This document shows positions 1,211 to 49,607 of a stretch of DNA of 64,000 bases, one piece after another (position 1 is the first letter of the stretch; each line of letters starts with the position of its first letter). The notes below the pieces were generated by a model. That model ran no database searches and was not told the origin of the DNA. It was given only the letters and a program-made list of their open reading frames with translations. The translations under genes and the position numbers were made by a program. Source of the stretch: an archaeon (GTDB lineage: Archaea; Nanobdellota; Nanobdellia; SCGC-AAA011-G17; GW2011-AR20). The stretch lies in contig NZCT01000025.1 of the NCBI GenBank assembly GCA_002688355.1, forward strand, positions 27,175 to 91,174, written 5' to 3'.

Positions 1211-2421
1211 CCAATATAAGAAGCAAATTTCTTTAAATCGTTTCTATCTCCCTCTAACAAACTAGTTTCCATTAAATCCTTACCTTTATCAACCATTTCA
1301 GCAGCTTCTAAAAAATGTTTCATCTTAATTGTTTTATCTTTGTTGTCTAAAGATTCATTTGCAGCAAGTCTAGCAGAGTTAAGGATAACATTTTTAATAT
1401 CTCCTCCAGAAAAAGAATACTTATCTGCAAGTTCACCAAAATCAACATCAGAATCCAATGGCATTTTATCTCCAATTAACACATTATAAATTTTCTCTCT
1501 TTCTTCTTTTTCAGGTAAGCCAAAATAAATGTGGGAACTAATTCTTCTTTCAAAAGCTTTATCGATATTTGAAGCTAAGTTTGTAGAAAATATAACAACT
1601 CCTTTGAAAGTTTCTAATTTTCTTAACAAAATACTTTTATCCATATTAATTAAACTATCGGTTGAATCTAGAACATTAGTTCTTGTAGATATTATTGCAT
1701 CTGCTTCATCGAAAAACAAAACTGCATCATTATTAGAAGCATACTCAAAAGCTAATTTAATATTTTTCCCAGTCTCTCCAATATAGCTATCAACTAAATT
1801 AGAATATTGAACAACATGCAATTTTTTATTTAATTCATTTGCAATCACTTCTGCTGCTAATGTTTTTCCAGTTCCAGGCATCCCAATAAAATTTAAGGAT
1901 ACTGAAGTTCCATAATCATGTTTTTTACCAAGGCCCCAATCATTAAAAATTAAATCATGATTTTTTATTTGTGCTAAAGAGATATCCATCTGTTTTTTTA
2001 TCTCATCATTAATTATAATGTCCTTAAATGTTTTTTTAGGTTTAATTACTTCAACAGTTTCATTCAAATCATCTAAATACTCTTCACCTTCACTTTCAAC
2101 ATATTCTTTGATAAAATCATCTTTAATATCATCTATTTCATTTTTGAAATGTTTAAACTCAGATTTAGGTAATCTTATATCTACATTATTTTTTTGAAAA
2201 AAGATTTTTACTGAATCTTTCTTATAGCATTTAATTAAGCAAACATGTCCTTTTATATCAACAATTTTTTCATTATCTAATTTAGAAATGTCTTTTTTGA
2301 ATTTCATGAACTCATCTAATTTTAGAGTTATACTAATCTTATTATGTCTAAAAATAACATTCAATAAAGATTCCTCATTAACCTTATCATACCACAATTC
2401 GAATGTTTTTCCTTTATACAT
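1207..2421 (-). CDS. AAA ATPase, classic/meiotic-clade-like (Vps4/katanin/spastin-like C-terminal module) with a unique ~180-aa N-terminal domain
   Basis: Walker A GMPGTGKT, Walker B LFFDEAD, SRH-like FSTNLASNIDKAFERRISSHIYFGLPE (cf. Vps4 [26 protein letters not shown]), and a C-terminal lid helix. Confidence 0.8.
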   Translation of the reverse strand: MYKGKTFELWYDKVNEESLLNVIFRHNKISITLKLDEFMKFKKDISKLDNEKIVDIKGHVCLIKCYKKDSVKIFFQKNNVDIRLPKSEFKHFKNEIDDIKDDFIKEYVESEGEEYLDDLNETVEVIKPKKTFKDIIINDEIKKQMDISLAQIKNHDLIFNDWGLGKKHDYGTSVSLNFIGMPGTGKTLAAEVIANELNKKLHVVQYSNLVDSYIGETGKNIKLAFEYASNNDAVLFFDEADAIISTRTNVLDSTDSLINMDKSILLRKLETFKGVVIFSTNLASNIDKAFERRISSHIYFGLPEKEEREKIYNVLIGDKMPLDSDVDFGELADKYSFSGGDIKNVILNSARLAANESLDNKDKTIKMKHFLEAAEMVDKGKDLMETSLLEGDRNDLKKFASYIG

Positions 2422-2487
2422 TTTTTAGAATAATTTACCTCTTACTTTTAGTATAGTAAGAAGATATTTAAATCTTTTTCTTAAAAT

Positions 2488-2562
2488 TGCCCCAGCCGAG
2501 ATTTGAACTCGGGTCTCGACCTCGAGAGGGTCGCATCCTGGACCGGGCTAGACTACTAGGGC
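2488..2562 (-). tRNA. tRNA-Glu (anticodon CUC), CCA not encoded
   Basis: Reverse complement folds as acceptor GCCCTAG/CTGGGGC, T-arm CCGAG-TTCAAAT-CTCGG, anticodon stem CGACC/GGTCG with loop CTCTCGA. Confidence 0.6.
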
Positions 2563-2564
2563 AT

Positions 2565-2646
2565 TAGCTCTGCCAGGGGTCGAACCTGGGCCATAAGATT
2601 TCTCCTAAATCCAGAGTCTTATATCATTCCACTAGACTACAGAGCT
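2565..2646 (-). tRNA. tRNA, isotype undetermined; enlarged D-loop or small insertion; abuts tRNA-Glu with a 2-nt spacer
   Basis: Reverse complement has 7-bp acceptor AGCTCTG/CAGAGCT, D-stem GTCT/AGAC, and T-arm CCAGG-TTCGACC-CCTGG. The anticodon arm is ambiguous; GGATT/AATCT with loop TAGGAGA is one option. Confidence 0.45.
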
Positions 2647-2735
2647 TTAAGTTTTTATATTTAACTAACTTTATAAATATTAATAATTAAAGCAAAAAAA
2701 GAAGTTTTAAAAATACATTTATTCAATATTATACA

Positions 2736-3353
2736 ATGAATTTCATAGAAAAAATATTCAAAAATCAAGTAGACGAGGATATACATAAGCAATTCACTAG
2801 ATTCAGTAAAGGAACTTTTGAAGACAGAGCTTTAACAAGAATAAAGAAAACAAAAAATAAAATCACAGTAAAAGTAAGTTATGATTTATCAAAGTTCTTA
2901 GTTGAAGTATTCTCCGATTTAATTACAGAATCAGAGATATCTGGAAAGTTAGTAAAGAAAGGTAAAAAGTCAGAAATCAATGAAAAAGTAAATTCTGAAC
3001 AATTAAAAACTTTATTAGAAGAAAACGATTATTGTTTAATTGATACTTCAACTGAAAAGTACAAACTAAAATGTAAAAAAGCAGTTCCAAAACCTGGAAA
3101 AGCATTAGACACAAAATTCTGCTCAGCAACACTACCTATGGACAAATCAAAAGAATTTCTTTTTGATACTGATGAAGATTTCAAAGACGCAGAAATCACA
3201 CACACATTCATTATAGAAGAGATAGTTGTACCAAAAGAGTATGAAAATAACCCTGAAGAAGCAAGATTAAACGCAAAGAGAAAGGGAAAACTAATAAGAA
3301 AAATAATTTTAGACGACAAAGAGACAGTTAAGGAAAAAGAAATAGAGATTTAG
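2736..3353 (+). CDS. Hypothetical K/E-rich protein
   Basis: ORF only; lies immediately upstream of the ribosomal operon. Confidence 0.35.
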   Translation: MNFIEKIFKNQVDEDIHKQFTRFSKGTFEDRALTRIKKTKNKITVKVSYDLSKFLVEVFSDLITESEISGKLVKKGKKSEINEKVNSEQLKTLLEENDYCLIDTSTEKYKLKCKKAVPKPGKALDTKFCSATLPMDKSKEFLFDTDEDFKDAEITHTFIIEEIVVPKEYENNPEEARLNAKRKGKLIRKIILDDKETVKEKEIEI

Positions 3354-3405
3354 TTTATGAAAAGCATTTAAATCCTTCTATACACGGTTATTTGTAATAA
3401 GAACG

Positions 3406-3413
3406 TTTATAAA
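3406..3413 (+). promoter_or_regulatory. Candidate archaeal TATA box (TTTATAAA) about 30 nt upstream of the L3 start; leaderless or short-leader operon promoter
   Basis: TTTATAAA positioned 29-36 nt before ATG 3442 at the head of the ribosomal operon. Confidence 0.3.
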
Positions 3414-3441
3414 TCTTTAAAAATCGTTTTTTATATTTAAG

Positions 3442-4389
3442 ATGGGTAAAACAAGTAAACCAAGAGCAGGATCTTTGCAGTTTTGGCATAGAAAGAGAGC
3501 TAGAAGAATCTATCCAAGAATAAGATCATGGACAAAATTAAGCAAATCTCCATTATTAGGTTTCATTGGATACAAAGTTGGAATAACACAAGTTCAAGGC
3601 TTAGATCAAAACCCTGCAAAAAAATCAAAAGAACCAATTGTTACAGCTGCAACAATAATAGAGTGCCCACCAATTAAGACATTATCTATAAGATACTATC
3701 AAAAGTCCTACAAGGGTTTAAAAGTTGTAGGAGAAAAACTTGCAGAAAAACTTGACAAAAGTTTAGATAAAAAATTAAGATTACCTAAAAATCCAAAAAA
3801 CAAAGAAATAAAGGAATTTGATGATATAAGATTAGTATTATACACTCAACCAAAACTAACAACTATAAATAAAAAGAAACCTGAAATTTTCGAAGTTGCT
3901 TTACCAGGAAAAAAAGAAGAAAAACTAGAGTTAGCAAATAAATATCTTAATTCTGAAATTAAAATTTCTGAAATTTTCGAAGAAAATACATTAATAGATG
4001 TTCATGCTGTAACAAAAGGAAAAGGATTCCAAGGAGCAGTAAAAAGATTTGGAATATCTCTAAAATCTCACAAATCTGAGAAGAAAAGAAGATCGGCAGG
4101 AAACATGGGTGCTTGGACGCCTAAAAAAGTTTCATTCAGAATACCACAAGCAGGACAAACAGGATATCACACAAGAACAGAACACAACAAATTAATATTC
4201 AAAATAAGTGATAAGTTAGAAGAAATAAATCCAAAAGCTGGGTTTACCCATTATGGTAATGTTAAAAACGAATACATAATTGTTAAAGGCTCAATCCCTG
4301 GCGCTATTAAAAGACCAGTAAGATTAACAGCAGCAATGAGACCTCAAAAAAACATTTCACAATTCCAATTACAAGAAATTAAAAAATGA
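3442..4389 (+). CDS. rpl3: Ribosomal protein uL3
   Basis: N-terminal KPRAGSLQFWHRKRA..., C-terminal QAGQTGYHTRTEHN; canonical operon position. Confidence 0.9.
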   Translation: MGKTSKPRAGSLQFWHRKRARRIYPRIRSWTKLSKSPLLGFIGYKVGITQVQGLDQNPAKKSKEPIVTAATIIECPPIKTLSIRYYQKSYKGLKVVGEKLAEKLDKSLDKKLRLPKNPKNKEIKEFDDIRLVLYTQPKLTTINKKKPEIFEVALPGKKEEKLELANKYLNSEIKISEIFEENTLIDVHAVTKGKGFQGAVKRFGISLKSHKSEKKRRSAGNMGAWTPKKVSFRIPQAGQTGYHTRTEHNKLIFKISDKLEEINPKAGFTHYGNVKNEYIIVKGSIPGAIKRPVRLTAAMRPQKNISQFQLQEIKK

Positions 4390-43523: not shown

Positions 43524-44045
43524 ATGAAAAAAGTATTATTTTCAATATTAATCTTAACAAGTTTATTTATTTTAGGTTGCACGACTGAAACTACCACAAC
43601 CACATTACAAGAAACTACTACAACTACAGAAGAAACTACAACCACAATAGAACCAAAGATGAAGAATATTGATGTACTAACAAATAAGGAACTTTACTTT
43701 CGAGCAGATGACGTAGAAATAAGTGTAAGAAACAATGGCCAAGAAATAGTAACCTTAACAGCAAGTAATGGCTGTGAAGATTTTTTCAAAATAACAAATC
43801 AAGATACTGGTAAAACTGTTCTTTTATACGATCACGAAGCTTTCTGTACTCAAGCAATTAAAGAATTAACAATAGAACCTGGCAAAACTGAAGTAATAGG
43901 AAATTGGGATCAAATTGATTTTACATCTAAAACATGCACTTATGGGGAATGCGATCCAGGCAATGCTGCCTTAGGAACATATAAGATACAAGTAAATGGT
44001 GCATCAAAAATAATAACTCTTATGATTCAACAAACTAATCTATAG
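43524..44045 (+). CDS. Putative lipoprotein, Thr-rich linker
   Basis: Signal plus lipobox-like LFILGC; poly-Thr; small beta-rich domain with paired Cys. Confidence 0.45.
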   Translation: MKKVLFSILILTSLFILGCTTETTTTTLQETTTTTEETTTTIEPKMKNIDVLTNKELYFRADDVEISVRNNGQEIVTLTASNGCEDFFKITNQDTGKTVLLYDHEAFCTQAIKELTIEPGKTEVIGNWDQIDFTSKTCTYGECDPGNAALGTYKIQVNGASKIITLMIQQTNL

Positions 44046-44106: not shown

Positions 44107-44727
44107 ATGGCTAAGCAAGAAAAATTCTTACTTTTATCTTTAGAAGAAGACAAAGCAAAAGAACTAGCTAACGCTATAAGCAATGAAACTTCGAGAAAAA
44201 TTCTAAATTACTTAACTGAAAAAGAAGCTTCAGAACATAAATTAGCTAAAAACTTAAAATTACCAGCTTCAACTATAAACTACAATATTAAAAATTTATT
44301 AAAAGCAAATTTAATTGAAGTAAAGGATTTTTATTGGAGTGAAAAAGGAAACAAAATAAATATGTACCAGGTTGCAAATAAATTAATTGTTATCTCTCCA
44401 AAACATGATGTTAATGAATTAAAAGTTAATATCAAAAGAATTTTACCAGTTGCTTTATTATCTTTTATAACCACAGGATTTATTTACATATTTACAAAAA
44501 CTAAAAATTTAGTAAGTTTTGGAGTGCAAGCACCACAAAAAGCTTTAGACTCTTCTAGGGGTTTAGTTGCAGAATCCGCTTCAATAACACAAGATACTTC
44601 TCAAACACCAACAGAAATATTTCAACAAATTATTCATGAACCCAATTACGCTTTGTGGTTTTTCCTGGGTTCCTTGTTTGTTATTGTAGTTTATGTTTTA
44701 ATTAATTTAATTAGAAAAAAGAAGTAA
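44107..44727 (+). CDS. ArsR/TrmB-like winged-helix regulator with C-terminal transmembrane segments
   Basis: HTH segment ISNETSRKILNYLTEKEASEHKLAKNLKLPASTINYNIKNL; two C-terminal TM helices. Confidence 0.5.
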   Translation: MAKQEKFLLLSLEEDKAKELANAISNETSRKILNYLTEKEASEHKLAKNLKLPASTINYNIKNLLKANLIEVKDFYWSEKGNKINMYQVANKLIVISPKHDVNELKVNIKRILPVALLSFITTGFIYIFTKTKNLVSFGVQAPQKALDSSRGLVAESASITQDTSQTPTEIFQQIIHEPNYALWFFLGSLFVIVVYVLINLIRKKK

Positions 44728-45955
44728 GTTTAGGTTGTTTTAATTCTTCATACAATAGACTTTTCTTTAACATCAAATCTAAGTTATATCTGAATTTTCT
44801 TAAAACAGTATTTCTAAGATAAGAAAACATTAGCTCTTTATTCTCAAAGCTTAAAGGATTATTTTCCATTGCTTTCCTTGCACTAGTCCTCGTAACCCAA
44901 ACTCCTAAGGGAACAGAGTAATCTTCTGTAACAAATCTAAAAACTATAGCAGAAGCTTTTCTCTTAATATTATTCAAATATTCTAGTATTCCCAACCTAA
45001 CAGTATAATAACCACCTGCAGTAGAATCAGCATATTTCGTTCTTCCTTTATATCCCTCATAGTCGGAACTAAAATTTAAAATCCCAGTGTGATTTTTAGG
45101 AGAATAAGTCTCAAATAACTCATAACTAAAACTATCTGGAAATAATAAAATATAATAATGATTACCAAAATATTCTGCATAATGTAATTGACAATTATCA
45201 ATTTGCTCATTAAATTTAATTAACTTAATAAAATTCTTACCTAACTGATCATCTACTGCAGTTATGCTCCATTTTGTTGGAACTAATTTTCTATTTTTTT
45301 TAAGACCAACAGAACCAACACTTAATACTTGTTGTAAAAACTGCTCATCAAAACCTTTCTTTTGTAAATAGTTCAAAGCTTCAACAGCCTTTAAATCCGT
45401 ATCATTAGTAACTTTATCAACACTTCTTTCTATCTTAACGTTAGAAGTTAGAGAAACTTTTTTCATAGGAGCACTTGGACCCATTGGCATTGCAATTTCT
45501 TCAAAATTAACTCGCATACTAGGTTTTTTCTTTAGTTCAACTTCAACATCTACTTTTTTACTAGCAACCCCAACATCTTTCATTAGCTCAATTAATCTAT
45601 TATCTTTCTGAATCTCAAATACATTTGTACTAGTTCTAGAATTAATCAAACTAGTTCTATATCTTACAATTTGAGCAATATTAAAATTATTCTTAACCCA
45701 GTAATTAACATCACTATAAATAGAAACATCCTTATCATGAAATCCAGGGCTCAGTATACCAACATTAACTTTAGGATATGCTAACTTACTTCCAACAAAG
45801 ATATTAGGAGGTGAAGAACCATAGAATGATTCTTTATCTAAACTCTTTACAGTATTATAGTAATATTCGTTCTTAGCACAAACAGGACAAAAGTTCCCTG
45901 AATAGTAAATCTTATGATGTTTATTCTCACATTTAACGTTAGGAAAATCAACCAT
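44711..45955 (-). CDS. nreA: NreA-like archaeal DNA-repair-associated protein with C-terminal PCNA-interacting (PIP) box
   Basis: N-terminal Cys4 (C..H..C..C); extreme C-terminus QPKLTSFF matches QxxLxxFF. Confidence 0.4.
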   Translation of the reverse strand: MVDFPNVKCENKHHKIYYSGNFCPVCAKNEYYYNTVKSLDKESFYGSSPPNIFVGSKLAYPKVNVGILSPGFHDKDVSIYSDVNYWVKNNFNIAQIVRYRTSLINSRTSTNVFEIQKDNRLIELMKDVGVASKKVDVEVELKKKPSMRVNFEEIAMPMGPSAPMKKVSLTSNVKIERSVDKVTNDTDLKAVEALNYLQKKGFDEQFLQQVLSVGSVGLKKNRKLVPTKWSITAVDDQLGKNFIKLIKFNEQIDNCQLHYAEYFGNHYYILLFPDSFSYELFETYSPKNHTGILNFSSDYEGYKGRTKYADSTAGGYYTVRLGILEYLNNIKRKASAIVFRFVTEDYSVPLGVWVTRTSARKAMENNPLSFENKELMFSYLRNTVLRKFRYNLDLMLKKSLLYEELKQPKLTSFF

Positions 45956-46041
45956 CTTACTTAGATTATATTAAAATATATAAATATTTATCAAGACTAA
46001 AATTATCTTTTAATCTAAGAAAAATATATAAAAGAGGTAAA

Positions 46042-46776
46042 ATGCTGAAAATTCAGAAAGATATCAATAATCTCAAAACATATCTAAATAGACTAAGTAA
46101 TACAAATAAAATAAAAGATATTAAAACAAAAAGAATTCTAAAATTTAATACTAGTAACAAATCTCTAGTTCAAAAAAATATTCAATATACAATATCATCT
46201 ATAAAAAACAATTTTTGGGAATTTTCTGATAATTTAGCAAAAGATGAAACTAATATAAAAATACTAAATAAAGTATATGATGGCGTTAAAACTCTAAATT
46301 ATAAAGATACAGATACTACTATTGACGCTTTAATACAAATAGAAGACGAACTTAAAAAAATTAAAACAACTCCAGATTTAAAAATAACTTTTGATGCTAA
46401 AAAAATCCCTTTAGAAATTAAAGAAGAGATAGTAACAGATTTTAATGAAGCTCACAGATGCTATCTTTCTGGAAATCATAGAAGTTCAATTATTTTATGC
46501 GGTCGTGTTTTAGAGATAGTATTACACAGAAAATACTTTGAATTAACTTCTCTAGATATTTTAGAAAAAAACCCTGGAATTGGTTTAGGTACATTAATAG
46601 CTAAGTTACAAGATAAAAACATAAATTTTGATCCAGGGGTTACTCAACAAATTCATCTAATAAATCAAACTAGAATTCATTCAGTTCATATTAAAAAAGA
46701 AACATTTTATCCTACAAAATCACAAAATCAAGCTATTTTACTCTTAACACAAGATATTTTAGAGAAGTTATTCTAA
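46042..46776 (+). CDS. HEPN-like (DUF4145-type) domain protein, predicted RNase / defence effector
   Basis: C-terminal helical domain HRCYLSGNHRSSIILCGRVLEIVLHRK ... QTRIHSVH (Rx4H HEPN motif). Confidence 0.45.
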   Translation: MLKIQKDINNLKTYLNRLSNTNKIKDIKTKRILKFNTSNKSLVQKNIQYTISSIKNNFWEFSDNLAKDETNIKILNKVYDGVKTLNYKDTDTTIDALIQIEDELKKIKTTPDLKITFDAKKIPLEIKEEIVTDFNEAHRCYLSGNHRSSIILCGRVLEIVLHRKYFELTSLDILEKNPGIGLGTLIAKLQDKNINFDPGVTQQIHLINQTRIHSVHIKKETFYPTKSQNQAILLLTQDILEKLF

Positions 46777-46784
46777 AAACCTTT

Positions 46785-46815
46785 ATATATACGTACATAT
46801 ACGTACAATATACTC
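46785..46815 (+). promoter_or_regulatory. Tandem direct repeats ATATACGTAC x2 (each with palindrome TACGTA) within an AT-rich promoter upstream of the RHH gene; putative operator
   Basis: Sequence tatATATACGTACATATACGTACaatatac read directly, 6-30 nt upstream of ATG 46821. Confidence 0.5.
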
Positions 46816-46820
46816 AAAAA

Positions 46821-47063
46821 ATGGAAGAAGGTGATCTAAATCTATACAGAAGAAAAAGACTTAATATAACGATAAATGAGAAGGTTCTAACTGATTTTAA
46901 ATCTCATTCTAGAGATAATAGTGTAAATATATCAAGATTCGTAGAAAATAAGATGTTAGAAGAGATGATGGCAAAAGACGTAAAGCAAAAAGATATGACT
47001 ATGGTAGCAGGAGCGTGGAGTGATTTATCTAATAAAAATTTCTTAAAGAAAAAAACAAAATAA
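46821..47063 (+). CDS. Ribbon-helix-helix (CopG/antitoxin-like) DNA-binding protein
   Basis: KRLNITINEKVLTDFKSHSRDNSVNISRFVENKMLEEM fits the RHH strand-helix-helix pattern. Confidence 0.5.
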   Translation: MEEGDLNLYRRKRLNITINEKVLTDFKSHSRDNSVNISRFVENKMLEEMMAKDVKQKDMTMVAGAWSDLSNKNFLKKKTK

Positions 47064-49562
47064 CTATTTCTTCAAATCTTTCAAAAACCTACTAACAGTA
47101 TTAACTAAATGTTCTTTTTGAGTTTTTAGAACTTGAGTTAATTTCTCTAAAACTTCTTCATCTCCTAGTTTACTTTCTACTTTACTCTCAAGTACAAAAA
47201 CTTCATCAGAACCTTTCTTAACAATTCTCTTCCACTTACTAAATAATTCCTCAACTCTCCCAATTAAATATTTCTTATCAATATTTAAAATCTCAGATAA
47301 TTCACCAATCAAGTTCTTTTCTTTATTCAAATAATTTTGAGCTTTCTGTCCTGCAACATATTCTAACCTTACAACAGAATCAGAAATTTTGCTAGATTTA
47401 GTAATTTTAATCAACTTAACCGTCGAGGTATTCTCAGAATGCGTGCCACCACAAGCCTCAACATCAAAACCTTTAATACTCACAATTCTCAAATATTTTC
47501 CAGGAATTGCACCACCTTGATAAATTCCCATTCCAAATTCTTTCTCAGCATCATTTCTCAAAACAATATCACTATCTATAGAAATTCTCTTATCAATAAT
47601 AGCATTTGCACAATCTTCGATTTCTTTAATCTCCTCTTCTTTCAAAGACTGATAATGTGTAATATCTAAATGTCCTTTTTCTGTATCTTTAAACGCAGAA
47701 GCTTGATTAATATGATTACCTAAAACCTTTTTAGCAGCTCCATTTAAAATATGTGCAGCATCATGGTGTACAGTTAATAACAATCTTCTTTCTAAATTTA
47801 TTTTTACACTAACAGTATCATTAACTTTAAAATTAGGTTTCTCTTTTAATTTATGTAAAATAACATTACCTTGTTTAATTACATCTATAATTTCTATTCC
47901 ATTCACTTTTCCAAGATCATGTAACTGTCCTCCAGAAGTTGGATATGCAACTGTCTTATCTAAAACTACTAAATCTTTTATAATCTTCAAAATTTTTCCT
48001 TTATTTTCAGTTTTCTTATAATCTTTTAAATACAAAGCTTCAGTTTCTTGTACATTATCTAAAGATAAATCACTTTTCTTAGTTTGATGTTTTTGTTCTT
48101 TCTTTTCATTTAATTCTGAAACTTTCAAATAAAAATCGTCGGGGATATCAACCTTCTTTTTTAATTTAGAAGCTTCTTCTTTTATTAATTCTGGATTAAT
48201 ACCTTGACTATTATAAACTTCTAATAATAAATTTTCATCAATATTTTTCTTTATCAATCCAGAAATTAGTTTCCTAGATTTCTCCTTAGTATTTTCATAT
48301 TTAGATTTCTCTACATCCAAAATCTTTTGAACATCATTTAAATTTTCACTCAATTCGGGAAATAAAGGTCTCAAATAATTAGCGTGTTCCTCCACTAACG
48401 AAAGAAAATCAACCTCCCAATTATATTGATCTATAAAACTTAAAGCTCTTCTATATAAAATTCTTAAATTATATCCTCCTCCAACATTAGATGGTAGGGC
48501 TCCATCACTTAAAGAAACTAATAATGCTCGAGAATGTTCACCAATAGAATACATAGCGCCCAATTCTAAGATTTTATTTTTCAATTCAGAAACATCATAT
48601 CCAACTTTCTTAGAAATATCCTTCCAAGTCTTATCAATATTATCAACTTCATCAATATTCAAATAAGAAGAATATGGTAAAAAGTTTTTCATCAAATCAT
48701 TATCAACTTTAATATTAGTTATTTTTTTTAACTTACGAACAATAGTTGGAAATGTAGTCTCGTAACTTGTAGATTTTCCTTGCGAGAACCAAGAAACTCT
48801 TTCATGACCCATCCCCATATCTAAAACTTTTATTTTTAGCTCTCGTAAACCTTTATCTAAAACTTCATATTGCATATAAACTTGATTAGCTAATTCTAAA
48901 CCTCTAGAAAAAAACTCACAGCTTACACCAGCATTACCACCACCAGTCCAAGAATCTGGCATAATATACAACTCATCTTTTGGTATTTTTAATCCACGTA
49001 AAAAAAACTCATGTAAATCCGAAAAATATTTACCAATATCATATTTTTCACTTGGAACAAAGGCATGTTGTCCTGACATTAAAAAACAACTATAATGTGC
49101 TCCTGTTATCCCAACATTATCAATATCATTAAACCTCATACATAATTGAGGAACAATTAAAGGGTTTGCAGGAGGTTCTACTTCGCCACTAACTACGTAA
49201 GGTTGAAAATCATAAATAGAAGCACCAACCCAGTACTCATCTTTTCTCCATCTTGCTACAACAGGATATCTTTTTATCTCAGCATAACCTTTCTTCTTTA
49301 AAATATTTGAAAATTCTTTCCATGCTCCAATATAATCTAATTTATTTCTAGCAGGACTGTCGTTAATAAATCTAAATCCACCAGAACAATTACCCTCTCC
49401 ACACAAATCTTTTTCTTCTAAAGTATAAAATATTCTTTTACAATTTTTACATTTATTTAAAATATATCCCAAACTTTTTAAAACATCAACAGGATAATAC
49501 TTTTCAGGTTTAGAAAAAGCCTTCTTTCTTAAATCTTCTTTTATCTTTTTATTATCTAACAT
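47064..49562 (-). CDS. alaS: Alanyl-tRNA synthetase (archaeal type)
   Basis: Class II core; editing-domain HxxxH...CGGTH motifs (HHDAAH, CGGTHSEN). Confidence 0.9.
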   Translation of the reverse strand: MLDNKKIKEDLRKKAFSKPEKYYPVDVLKSLGYILNKCKNCKRIFYTLEEKDLCGEGNCSGGFRFINDSPARNKLDYIGAWKEFSNILKKKGYAEIKRYPVVARWRKDEYWVGASIYDFQPYVVSGEVEPPANPLIVPQLCMRFNDIDNVGITGAHYSCFLMSGQHAFVPSEKYDIGKYFSDLHEFFLRGLKIPKDELYIMPDSWTGGGNAGVSCEFFSRGLELANQVYMQYEVLDKGLRELKIKVLDMGMGHERVSWFSQGKSTSYETTFPTIVRKLKKITNIKVDNDLMKNFLPYSSYLNIDEVDNIDKTWKDISKKVGYDVSELKNKILELGAMYSIGEHSRALLVSLSDGALPSNVGGGYNLRILYRRALSFIDQYNWEVDFLSLVEEHANYLRPLFPELSENLNDVQKILDVEKSKYENTKEKSRKLISGLIKKNIDENLLLEVYNSQGINPELIKEEASKLKKKVDIPDDFYLKVSELNEKKEQKHQTKKSDLSLDNVQETEALYLKDYKKTENKGKILKIIKDLVVLDKTVAYPTSGGQLHDLGKVNGIEIIDVIKQGNVILHKLKEKPNFKVNDTVSVKINLERRLLLTVHHDAAHILNGAAKKVLGNHINQASAFKDTEKGHLDITHYQSLKEEEIKEIEDCANAIIDKRISIDSDIVLRNDAEKEFGMGIYQGGAIPGKYLRIVSIKGFDVEACGGTHSENTSTVKLIKITKSSKISDSVVRLEYVAGQKAQNYLNKEKNLIGELSEILNIDKKYLIGRVEELFSKWKRIVKKGSDEVFVLESKVESKLGDEEVLEKLTQVLKTQKEHLVNTVSRFLKDLKK

Positions 49563-49607
49563 TACTTACGTAAAAACGTAACACTTTTTATTATTTCCTA
49601 TAAAGAA

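Follow-up and report, generated by a model that had tools for sequence, protein, structure and literature searches.

A window of 64,000 nucleotides (nt) from an archaeal contig (NZCT01000025.1, positions 27,175 to 91,174 of the forward strand; AT-rich archaeal DNA with 28% GC) was analyzed, with attention to two adjacent open reading frames (ORFs), here called ORF A and ORF B, and to the promoter between them. ORF A encodes 244 amino acids (aa), including the sequence QTRIHSVH, and ORF B encodes 80 aa. In a preliminary description, ORF A had been read as a HEPN-type protein, ORF B as a ribbon-helix-helix (RHH) protein, a tandem TACGTA-containing repeat as an RHH operator, and the whole as a candidate toxin/defense module. 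Both ORFs were present in the window, co-directional on the forward strand, and the second lay closely downstream of the first as reported, with a measured gap of 44 nt in place of 45 bp. As set out below, the HEPN, RHH, and operator calls are correct individually; the linkage drawn between them is incorrect. The features of the two genes, with the basis of each assignment, are as follows.

46042..46776, forward strand: ORF A, 244 aa, a four-helix variable N-terminal domain followed by a predicted HEPN/DUF4145-like C-terminal domain (ORF call, family, AlphaFold2 [AF2] model)
46432..46776, forward strand: predicted HEPN domain of ORF A, aa ~131-244 (DUF4145 matches, Foldseek, topology)
46573..46590, forward strand: PGIGLG loop of ORF A, aa 178-183, in the insert between helices 2 and 3 of the HEPN domain (alignment, AF2)
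46672..46689, forward strand: Rx4H motif of ORF A, R211-I-H-S-V-H216, the predicted catalytic site, located where helix 3 ends (invariance in the alignment)
46782..46789, forward strand: TTTATATA, a TATA-box-like element in the ORF B promoter (sequence reading)
46787..46806, forward strand: two tandem copies of ATATACGTAC, the predicted RHH operator (repeat and related loci)
46821..47063, forward strand: ORF B, 80 aa, a putative orphan, N-terminally truncated member of an RHH antitoxin family (ORF call, homologues)
46842..46964, forward strand: predicted RHH core of ORF B, aa 8-48, LYRRKRLNITINEKVLTDFKSHSRDNSVNISRFVENKMLEE (homology to relatives)

Fold and distribution of the ORF A family

From its sequence and from a structural model, the C-terminal domain of ORF A is predicted to be HEPN/DUF4145-like with an intact Rx4H motif, and in this respect the preliminary description holds. 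Of 62 aligned members of the ORF A family, 53 matched DUF4145 (PF13643) at an E value of ≤0.01, the best at 9.5e-7, and 2 matched Pfam HEPN. An AF2 model built on the 62 homologues, with a predicted local distance difference test (pLDDT) score of 84.7, consisted of four N-terminal helices (aa 1 to ~120) followed by a four-helix bundle (H1, 124-142; H2, 146-169; H3, 198-215; H4, 226-243). The H2-H3 insert was modeled as short helices at 173-176 and 182-191 on either side of the PGIGLG loop, while R211 was placed within H3 and H216 just past its end. This topology agrees with the published definition of HEPN domains, a four-helix up-down bundle with an H2-H3 insert and Rx4-6H where helix 3 ends, and DUF4145 is an accepted HEPN family in the same work (Anantharaman et al. 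2013; PMC3710099). When the model was compared with the PDB using Foldseek, the first ranks were taken by HEPN structures (1ufb, 1wol, 2q00, 3o10, 1o3u, and 2hsb), with probabilities of up to 0.99 and target-normalized template modeling (TM) scores of 0.62 to 0.67.

Conservation was concentrated in this domain, where the mean pairwise identity was 68% compared to 21% in the N-terminal part. Across the 62 aligned members, 25 residues of the C-terminal domain were invariant, among them R211 and H216 of the QTRIHSVH motif (aa 209-216). E158 in helix 2 was also invariant and is followed by L161, H162, R163, and K164 (E-x3-H-R-K), providing a conserved acidic residue in an Ex3[KR]-like setting. Within the PGIGLG loop, P178, L182, and G183 were invariant and G179, I180, and G181 were conserved in at least 90% of members; by the shape of the motif, the loop resembles a helix-hairpin-helix nucleic-acid-binding motif (compare GIGxxxA).

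Several observations weigh against the HEPN call. The match of the window's own protein to DUF4145 (E = 0.0024, 18.4 bits) was below the gathering score of 23.1, as were those of most family members, a minority being flagged PF13643 in precomputed annotations. The Foldseek E values were weak (about 0.3 to 5), and the motif arginine is followed by isoleucine in place of the usual polar N, D, or H. The call was nevertheless made because four lines of evidence coincide: the weak but family-wide DUF4145 matches, the top-ranking fold matches, the canonical topology, and the invariant Rx4H. Sequence searches of the PDB with ORF A, either as a single sequence or as a profile, returned coiled-coil noise from the N-terminal domain alone and were set aside; ORF A matched nothing in NCBIfam, and no PADLOC match was obtained. 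At the C terminus, the sequence QDILEKLF (46750-46773), with the family pattern xDxLEK[LMIF][FY], loosely resembles a degenerate PCNA-interacting protein (PIP) box. This likeness is probably coincidental, since conservation does not extend to the Q and helix 4 of the predicted HEPN bundle includes the segment.

At an E value of ≤1e-3, the family comprised 580 proteins, reducing to 449 representatives at 50% identity, 200 of which were below 1e-30, and 322 loci were found in GTDB species-representative genomes, all of them from DPANN archaea. Almost all listed full-length members are about 230 to 260 aa long. Where the taxon names were informative, they were nearly all Woesearchaeota, Nanoarchaeota/Nanoarchaeia, or Nanobdellota, with two Undinarchaeota; many other records bear the label "uncultured Methanosarcinales," which is taken to be a mislabel. 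Among 80 loci kept from the 322 GTDB matches, the family was mostly present at one locus per assembly, and no paralogue was found within the 64-kb window. No homologues were found in phage records, plasmid records, or IMG/VR. By its sequence, ORF A is a member of a DPANN-wide new subfamily of DUF4145-type HEPN proteins, and its distribution resembles that of a chromosomal gene conserved within its lineage rather than that of a mobile toxin.

Neighborhoods of ORF A and the recurrence of nreA

The neighborhoods of 87 ORF A family loci (86 besides the window) were compared by clustering the genes within three positions of ORF A. In the window itself, the pair is flanked by the following features.

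44711..45955, reverse strand: nreA, divergent from ORF A with an 86-nt gap (Pfam Nre_N, E = 2.3e-79; Nre_C, E = 1.6e-27)
46033-46038, forward strand: AGAGGT, a Shine-Dalgarno-like element ahead of ORF A (sequence)
47064..49562, reverse strand: alaS, an archaeal alanine--tRNA ligase gene, convergent with ORF B and flush against its end (TIGR03683, E = 3.8e-225)

The commonest neighbor family was NreA, found at 24 of the 87 loci, on the same strand at position -1 in 12 and divergent in 7. At the 12 co-directional loci (L017, L021, L023, L030, L047, L059, L065, L067, L077, L080, L081, and L088), the gap between nreA and ORF A ranged from -4 to 54 nt; at L067, L077, L080, and L081, the genes were 2 to 4 nt apart or overlapping. 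By tblastn, nreA was located within 3 kb upstream of ORF A at 30 loci. Collapsing the ORF A proteins at 70% identity left 61 clusters; nreA adjoined ORF A in 14 of them and lay no more than 3 kb away in 22. The second commonest neighbor was alaS, downstream of ORF A at 19 of the 87 loci. Immediate neighbors otherwise varied widely and were of housekeeping kind, with ORF A lying near RNase J in some clades or, in others, near RtcB/archease and TATA-binding protein (TBP) genes on the opposite strand. In one such clade (L015, L026, L031, L033, L034, L036, L060, and L076), ORF A was situated between conserved ORFs of 72 and 75 aa, with the genes for RtcB and archease (an RNA ligase and its cofactor) upstream and that for TBP downstream, each of them on the strand opposite ORF A.

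In the window's own clade, nreA is divergent from ORF A, so that the linkage persists despite inversion. The closest relatives (L001-L003 and L007-L010; 62 to 68% identity) share the local order helix-turn-helix (HTH) gene-nreA-A-x-alaS, where x is a gene for a 281-aa CorA-like protein. In one of these, L007 (65% identity; 1973-3911), two nucleotidyltransferase (MNT) genes and one gene for a HepT-like HEPN protein come after the A-CorA pair. Other genes of toxin-antitoxin type were seen beside ORF A at L014, where RelE-like and AbrB-like genes flank it, and at L024, where a HicB-like gene is present. The region downstream of ORF A appears to be a variable slot that collects toxin-antitoxin cassettes in several genomes; in the window, it would be occupied by a decayed cassette, described below. 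An MNT gene adjacent to ORF A was found at none of the surveyed loci, and in the window, the neighbors are nreA and ORF B.

NreA, a PCNA-binding factor confined to archaea, is required for repairing mitomycin C damage; no biochemical activity is known for it, and a catalytic function is expected to act alongside it (PMC4929162). The NreA encoded in the window carries a PIP box, QPKLTSFF, at its C terminus. The recurrent, operon-like arrangement with nreA suggests that ORF A may be tied to NreA/PCNA DNA damage repair; as a point against this, the linkage was seen in only about one-quarter to one-third of lineages, and inheritance of an ancestral gene order could explain it. A stricter proposal is that ORF A would be a specific partner of NreA in PCNA-linked repair, as a nuclease or nucleic-acid-binding subunit, and would not act in general RNA processing. 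The standing of NreA as the single commonest neighbor family, in many cases the next gene upstream on the same strand, its stop codon overlapping or nearly overlapping the start codon of ORF A, favors this proposal, as do the survival of the link through the inversion in the window's clade, the expectation that NreA, for which no biochemical activity is known, acts with a catalytic function (PMC4929162), and the helix-hairpin-helix-like loop conserved in the HEPN insert. Set against these are the presence of the linkage in only 14 to 22 of 61 clusters, the location of ORF A elsewhere beside RNase J, RtcB/archease, TBP, or unrelated genes, and the observation that the reviewed catalytic HEPN domains are RNases, not DNases (PMC3710099). 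A specific partnership of this kind is considered possible but rather doubtful. Somewhat less likely again is its extended form, in which ORF A would be a near-universal housekeeping HEPN nuclease of DPANN archaea (Woesearchaeota/Nanoarchaeia) that supplies the catalytic or nucleic-acid-binding activity NreA appears to lack by means of its Rx4H motif and helix-hairpin-helix-like loop.

The reading preferred here for ORF A is more general. From the computed gene models, families, distributions, and neighborhoods, we infer that ORF A is a usually single-copy, lineage-wide chromosomal gene of DPANN archaea (Woesearchaeota/Nanoarchaeia, with some labeled Undinarchaeota), the product of which would be a metal-independent endoribonuclease or a nucleic-acid-processing enzyme with a housekeeping role. 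The activity is predicted from the intact motif, and by analogy with other HEPN enzymes, the protein would probably be a dimer.

Farther from the pair, on the forward strand at 43524-44045, lies a 173-aa ORF whose product is predicted to be secreted or lipoprotein-like and has a threonine-rich linker (TTETTTTTLQETTTTTEETTTT). The corresponding slot in the relative L001 holds a 404-aa DUF6438 protein.

ORF B, its cassette relatives, and the probable operator repeat

The RHH assignment of ORF B likewise holds as a prediction, with a strand-like KRLNITI segment followed by two helices. The supporting Pfam matches to the RHH clan, in ORF B and in its relatives, were weak but consistent: ORF B itself matched DUF6364 (E = 4.7e-4, 21.0 bits against a gathering score of 27.3) and CcdA (E = 0.007, 17.1 bits against 22.4), and relatives also matched CopG_antitoxin (E = 1.7e-5), RHH_1 (E = 9e-4), RHH_3, and ParG. 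ORF B had no PADLOC match, and NCBIfam gave one chance match below threshold. Two points weigh against the assignment: every RHH match of ORF B itself was below the gathering score, and the AF2 model, built on a two-sequence alignment, was of low confidence (pLDDT 58.7) and contained two helices (20-33 and 37-72) without a strand, the segment at 12-19 being extended.

As a lone query, ORF B retrieved itself (P0121) and one relative (P0122). A metagenome scan with a degenerate pattern yielded nine loci, and a profile search then gave 213 family proteins, almost all 77 to 90 aa long and from Woesearchaeota/Nanoarchaeia, a few of which had been named "post-segregation antitoxin (ccd killing protein)" by JGI. 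Members of the family share a conserved N-terminal helix (NVxRAKxLIxRYPEVFESLxEFERTKKIPK) and an RHH core (LYRRKRLNITIDENxLRxFK...N[IM]SRxxExKM). The homology of ORF B to its relatives is confined to the core (aa 8-48; 55 to 69% identity), where it keeps all 17 of the columns that are invariant in the alignment (A4). It does not have the N-terminal segment of ~27 to 33 residues that is present in the other 8 sequences of that alignment, and its 30-aa C-terminal tail is unique and unrelated to the relatives. In the DNA, the similarity shared with L006 by descent sets in precisely at the codons for LYRRKR, TATACAGAAG. Two candidate explanations of local context were rejected: ORF B is not a frame-shifted remnant of the CorA-like gene of the relatives, to which it has no similarity, and the ORF B relative in L006 does not abut alaS as in the window, the neighboring protein there being unrelated.

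The loci of the relatives provided the context of the family. At seven distinct loci (L094, L095, L096/97, L098, L099, L102, and L106/107), a Fic/Doc gene lies upstream of the antitoxin gene and overlaps its start by ~14 nt, giving a toxin-first gene order (for example, L095 761-1337 and L106 2182-2740). The toxin is ~110 aa long with the motif HxFEDGNKRTAA and matches Pfam Fic/DOC at 27.6 bits, above the gathering score of 24; the antitoxin is 79 aa long, with the conserved N-terminal helix and a C-terminal RHH domain. In a survey of toxin-antitoxin systems, the partners listed for Doc were Phd, AbrB/MazE, and YhfG, and RHH was not among the listed pairings (Makarova et al. 2009; PMC2701414). 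At L100/L101/L103/L104, only a 30-codon remnant of Doc is left (L100/L103 2820-3138), and L105 (2469-2737) holds a solo B-family gene with an intact operator and no Doc. On the strength of this remnant and this solo gene, members of the family seem to have turned into orphan regulators more than once by decay, with the Doc toxin lost independently and the RHH gene kept. In the window, Doc was absent by tblastn across the 64 kb. Since Doc is present at seven loci of relatives and absent here, ORF B is read as an antitoxin-family member outside a complete cassette, an orphan, against which it must be set that the genome could encode Doc beyond the 64 kb.

The spacer between ORF A and ORF B reads TAAAAACC-TTTATATA-TACGTA-CATA-TACGTA-CAATATACTCAAAAA-ATG. 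Two exact tandem copies of ATATACGTAC generate TACGTA palindromes at 46790-46795 and 46800-46805, immediately after TTTATATA, which we take to be a TATA box from general knowledge of archaeal promoters; an equivalent TTTAAATA precedes the palindromes in related cassettes. From general knowledge of RHH repressors, a palindrome pair spaced by one helical turn would accommodate two RHH dimers on the same side of the DNA. Taken alone, the repeat is unremarkable. Tandem Repeats Finder reported 96 short arrays scoring ≥30 in the window, the ATATACGTAC array scoring 47, and with up to 2 mismatches, TACGTA-N4-TACGTA would be expected 0.87 times by chance. Its significance comes only through comparison with related loci.

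For this comparison, all loci assembled, 875 kb in total, were searched for the element with ≤1 mismatch. The 13 matches fell in 9 distinct loci, each one lying just upstream of a B-family gene or cassette, and the rest of the 875 kb contained none; in the 89 A-family loci, the element was absent except in the window's own population. Upstream of B-family genes or Doc-RHH cassettes, it was found in L094-L098, L102, L105, and L106. Both hexamers were perfect in L095, L098, and L102, and one was perfect and the other carried a single mismatch in L094, L096/97, and L106. The spacers varied (TTTA, TTTG, CTTA, TATG, and CATA), whereas the hexamers and their 10-bp register were constant. The promoters of the Doc-RHH cassettes have the layout TTTAAATA-N4-TACGTA-N4-TACGTA-TAAAA-ATG, and that of the solo gene in L105, TTAAATATTTA-TACGTA-TATG-TACGTA, then 16 nt and ATG, agrees with the layout in the window. 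By this phylogenetic footprinting, the tandem repeat is very probably the operator of ORF B, as the preliminary description had proposed. An origin of the repeat by chance slippage in AT-rich DNA, without any part in regulation, for which the number of short arrays in the window and the near-unit chance expectation (~0.9) of the relaxed motif could be cited, is hardly credible, given that the same palindromes recur at the same spacing between differing spacers and flanks at the nine loci and nowhere else in the 875 kb. In the window, no second paired operator site or regulon was found. The TACGTA hexamer was somewhat enriched in the window (8 occurrences compared to 2.6 expected, a number not reached in any shuffle), but the copies outside the operator are isolated; one lone copy is located at 49567-49572, 5 nt upstream of the alaS start codon.

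From the computed conservation of the operator, we infer that RHH dimers would bind both palindromes, which follow the TATA box directly and, at a 10-bp interval, share one helical face. As the sites lie between the TATA box and a transcription start expected ~25 nt downstream of it, at about 46811-46813, ORF B would repress its own transcription by blocking assembly of the transcription machinery. The gene itself would be the remainder of a Doc-RHH type II cassette of the kind common in the same archaea, from which Doc and the N terminus of the antitoxin were lost while the RHH core and the cassette promoter/operator were kept.

Alternatively, ORF B could be a nonfunctional, decaying pseudogene of such a cassette, with the operator a fossil. 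Doc and ~30 conserved N-terminal residues are gone where relatives are near full length, the tail is nonhomologous, and ORF B is known from one population (P0121), which weighs against a maintained gene and would fit a decaying remnant. On the other side, the reading frame is intact, none of the 17 invariant core positions has been lost, both palindromes are perfect and rightly placed after the TATA box, and the independent recurrence of solo B-family genes whose operators are intact (L105) suggests maintenance of such copies. Decay to a pseudogene is accordingly judged unlikely, and a retained orphan regulator is the preferred reading of ORF B.

Relation of the two genes and comparison with known systems

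The preliminary description had combined these elements into a new type II toxin-antitoxin or defense module, in which ORF A would be an HEPN RNase toxin and ORF B its RHH antitoxin. The proposal is understandable in that the genes are adjacent and co-directional with a short gap, HEPN domains are frequent as toxins (PMC3710099), and ORF B, which derives from an antitoxin family, carries a unique tail at its C terminus to which a new partner could in principle bind. However, none of the 86 other A-family loci had a B-family or RHH neighbor. In the syntenic relatives (L001-L003 and L007-L010), the A-x spacer contains no TACGTA repeat, and the CorA-like gene stands in the place of ORF B. Conversely, tblastn detected no ORF A homologue at any of the nine metagenome-scan loci, nor do the annotations of L103-L107 include one; the relatives of ORF B pair with Fic/Doc instead. 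The TATA box and operator (46782-46805) lie between ORF A and ORF B, that is, downstream of ORF A, and so cannot regulate it. Unlike toxins, ORF A is conserved across its lineage, syntenic, strongly constrained, and missing from the mobile-element collections searched. The pair is thus not co-conserved and the repeat is missing at homologous loci, the two outcomes that the preliminary description had itself named as telling against the module.

A HEPN-RHH module at this locus is therefore very improbable. On comparative sequence evidence, ORF A and ORF B are probably unrelated genes that are adjacent by chance, not a toxin-antitoxin pair, and the explanation as a whole, with a housekeeping HEPN gene beside an orphan regulator left from a Doc cassette, is considered likely.

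With a new HEPN-RHH class of toxin-antitoxin system absent, the locus is unsuited as a candidate defense system. What it offers is a HEPN protein with an intact motif, fixed as a syntenic chromosomal gene across reduced-genome DPANN archaea and repeatedly linked to nreA. Because most prokaryotic HEPN families in the 2013 survey were read as conflict or defense modules (PMC3710099), a prokaryotic housekeeping HEPN protein with a possible link to repair would be a useful target for biochemistry. The passage from Doc-RHH cassettes to solo, putatively autoregulated RHH genes would provide an example of archaeal antitoxins turning into orphan regulators, and TACGTA-N4-TACGTA beside a TATA box, together with the RHH protein, constitutes a ready-made predicted operator/repressor pair.

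Among known systems, the ORF A family is closest to DUF4145 (PF13643), with which it shares the predicted HEPN fold, the Rx4H motif, and the topology. The described DUF4145 proteins are mostly bacterial; they occur as fusions to restriction-modification, helicase, TerD/McrBC, or Abi-type domains or share operons with them, and they have been read as conflict systems (PMC3710099). In contrast, the ORF A family is specific to DPANN archaea, keeps to a fixed architecture that includes a helical N-terminal domain of its own, and has housekeeping neighbors; it is also far more conserved than usual toxins and differs in the isoleucine after the arginine and in the PGIGLG loop. The HEPN-MNT system HepT/MntA has the HEPN fold and Rx4H in common with ORF A, and its structures 6m6u and 5yep were among the weaker Foldseek matches, but ORF A has no adjacent MNT gene, is twice the size of HepT with an extra domain, and is not patchily distributed.

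ORF B resembles RHH repressors (CopG, Arc, MetJ, the CcdA N terminus, and ParG) in its predicted strand-like segment and two helices and in the tandem palindromes overlapping its promoter; it differs from them in its uniformly subthreshold Pfam scores and its low-confidence predicted structure. The likeness to Fic/Doc modules of the Phd/Doc type (PMC2701414) lies in the relatives of ORF B, which overlap a small Doc gene with the HxFxDGNKR motif and carry the operator at the cassette promoter. The difference is that, in the DPANN cassettes, the antitoxin combines an N-terminal helix with a C-terminal RHH DNA-binding domain, and the toxin gene comes first.

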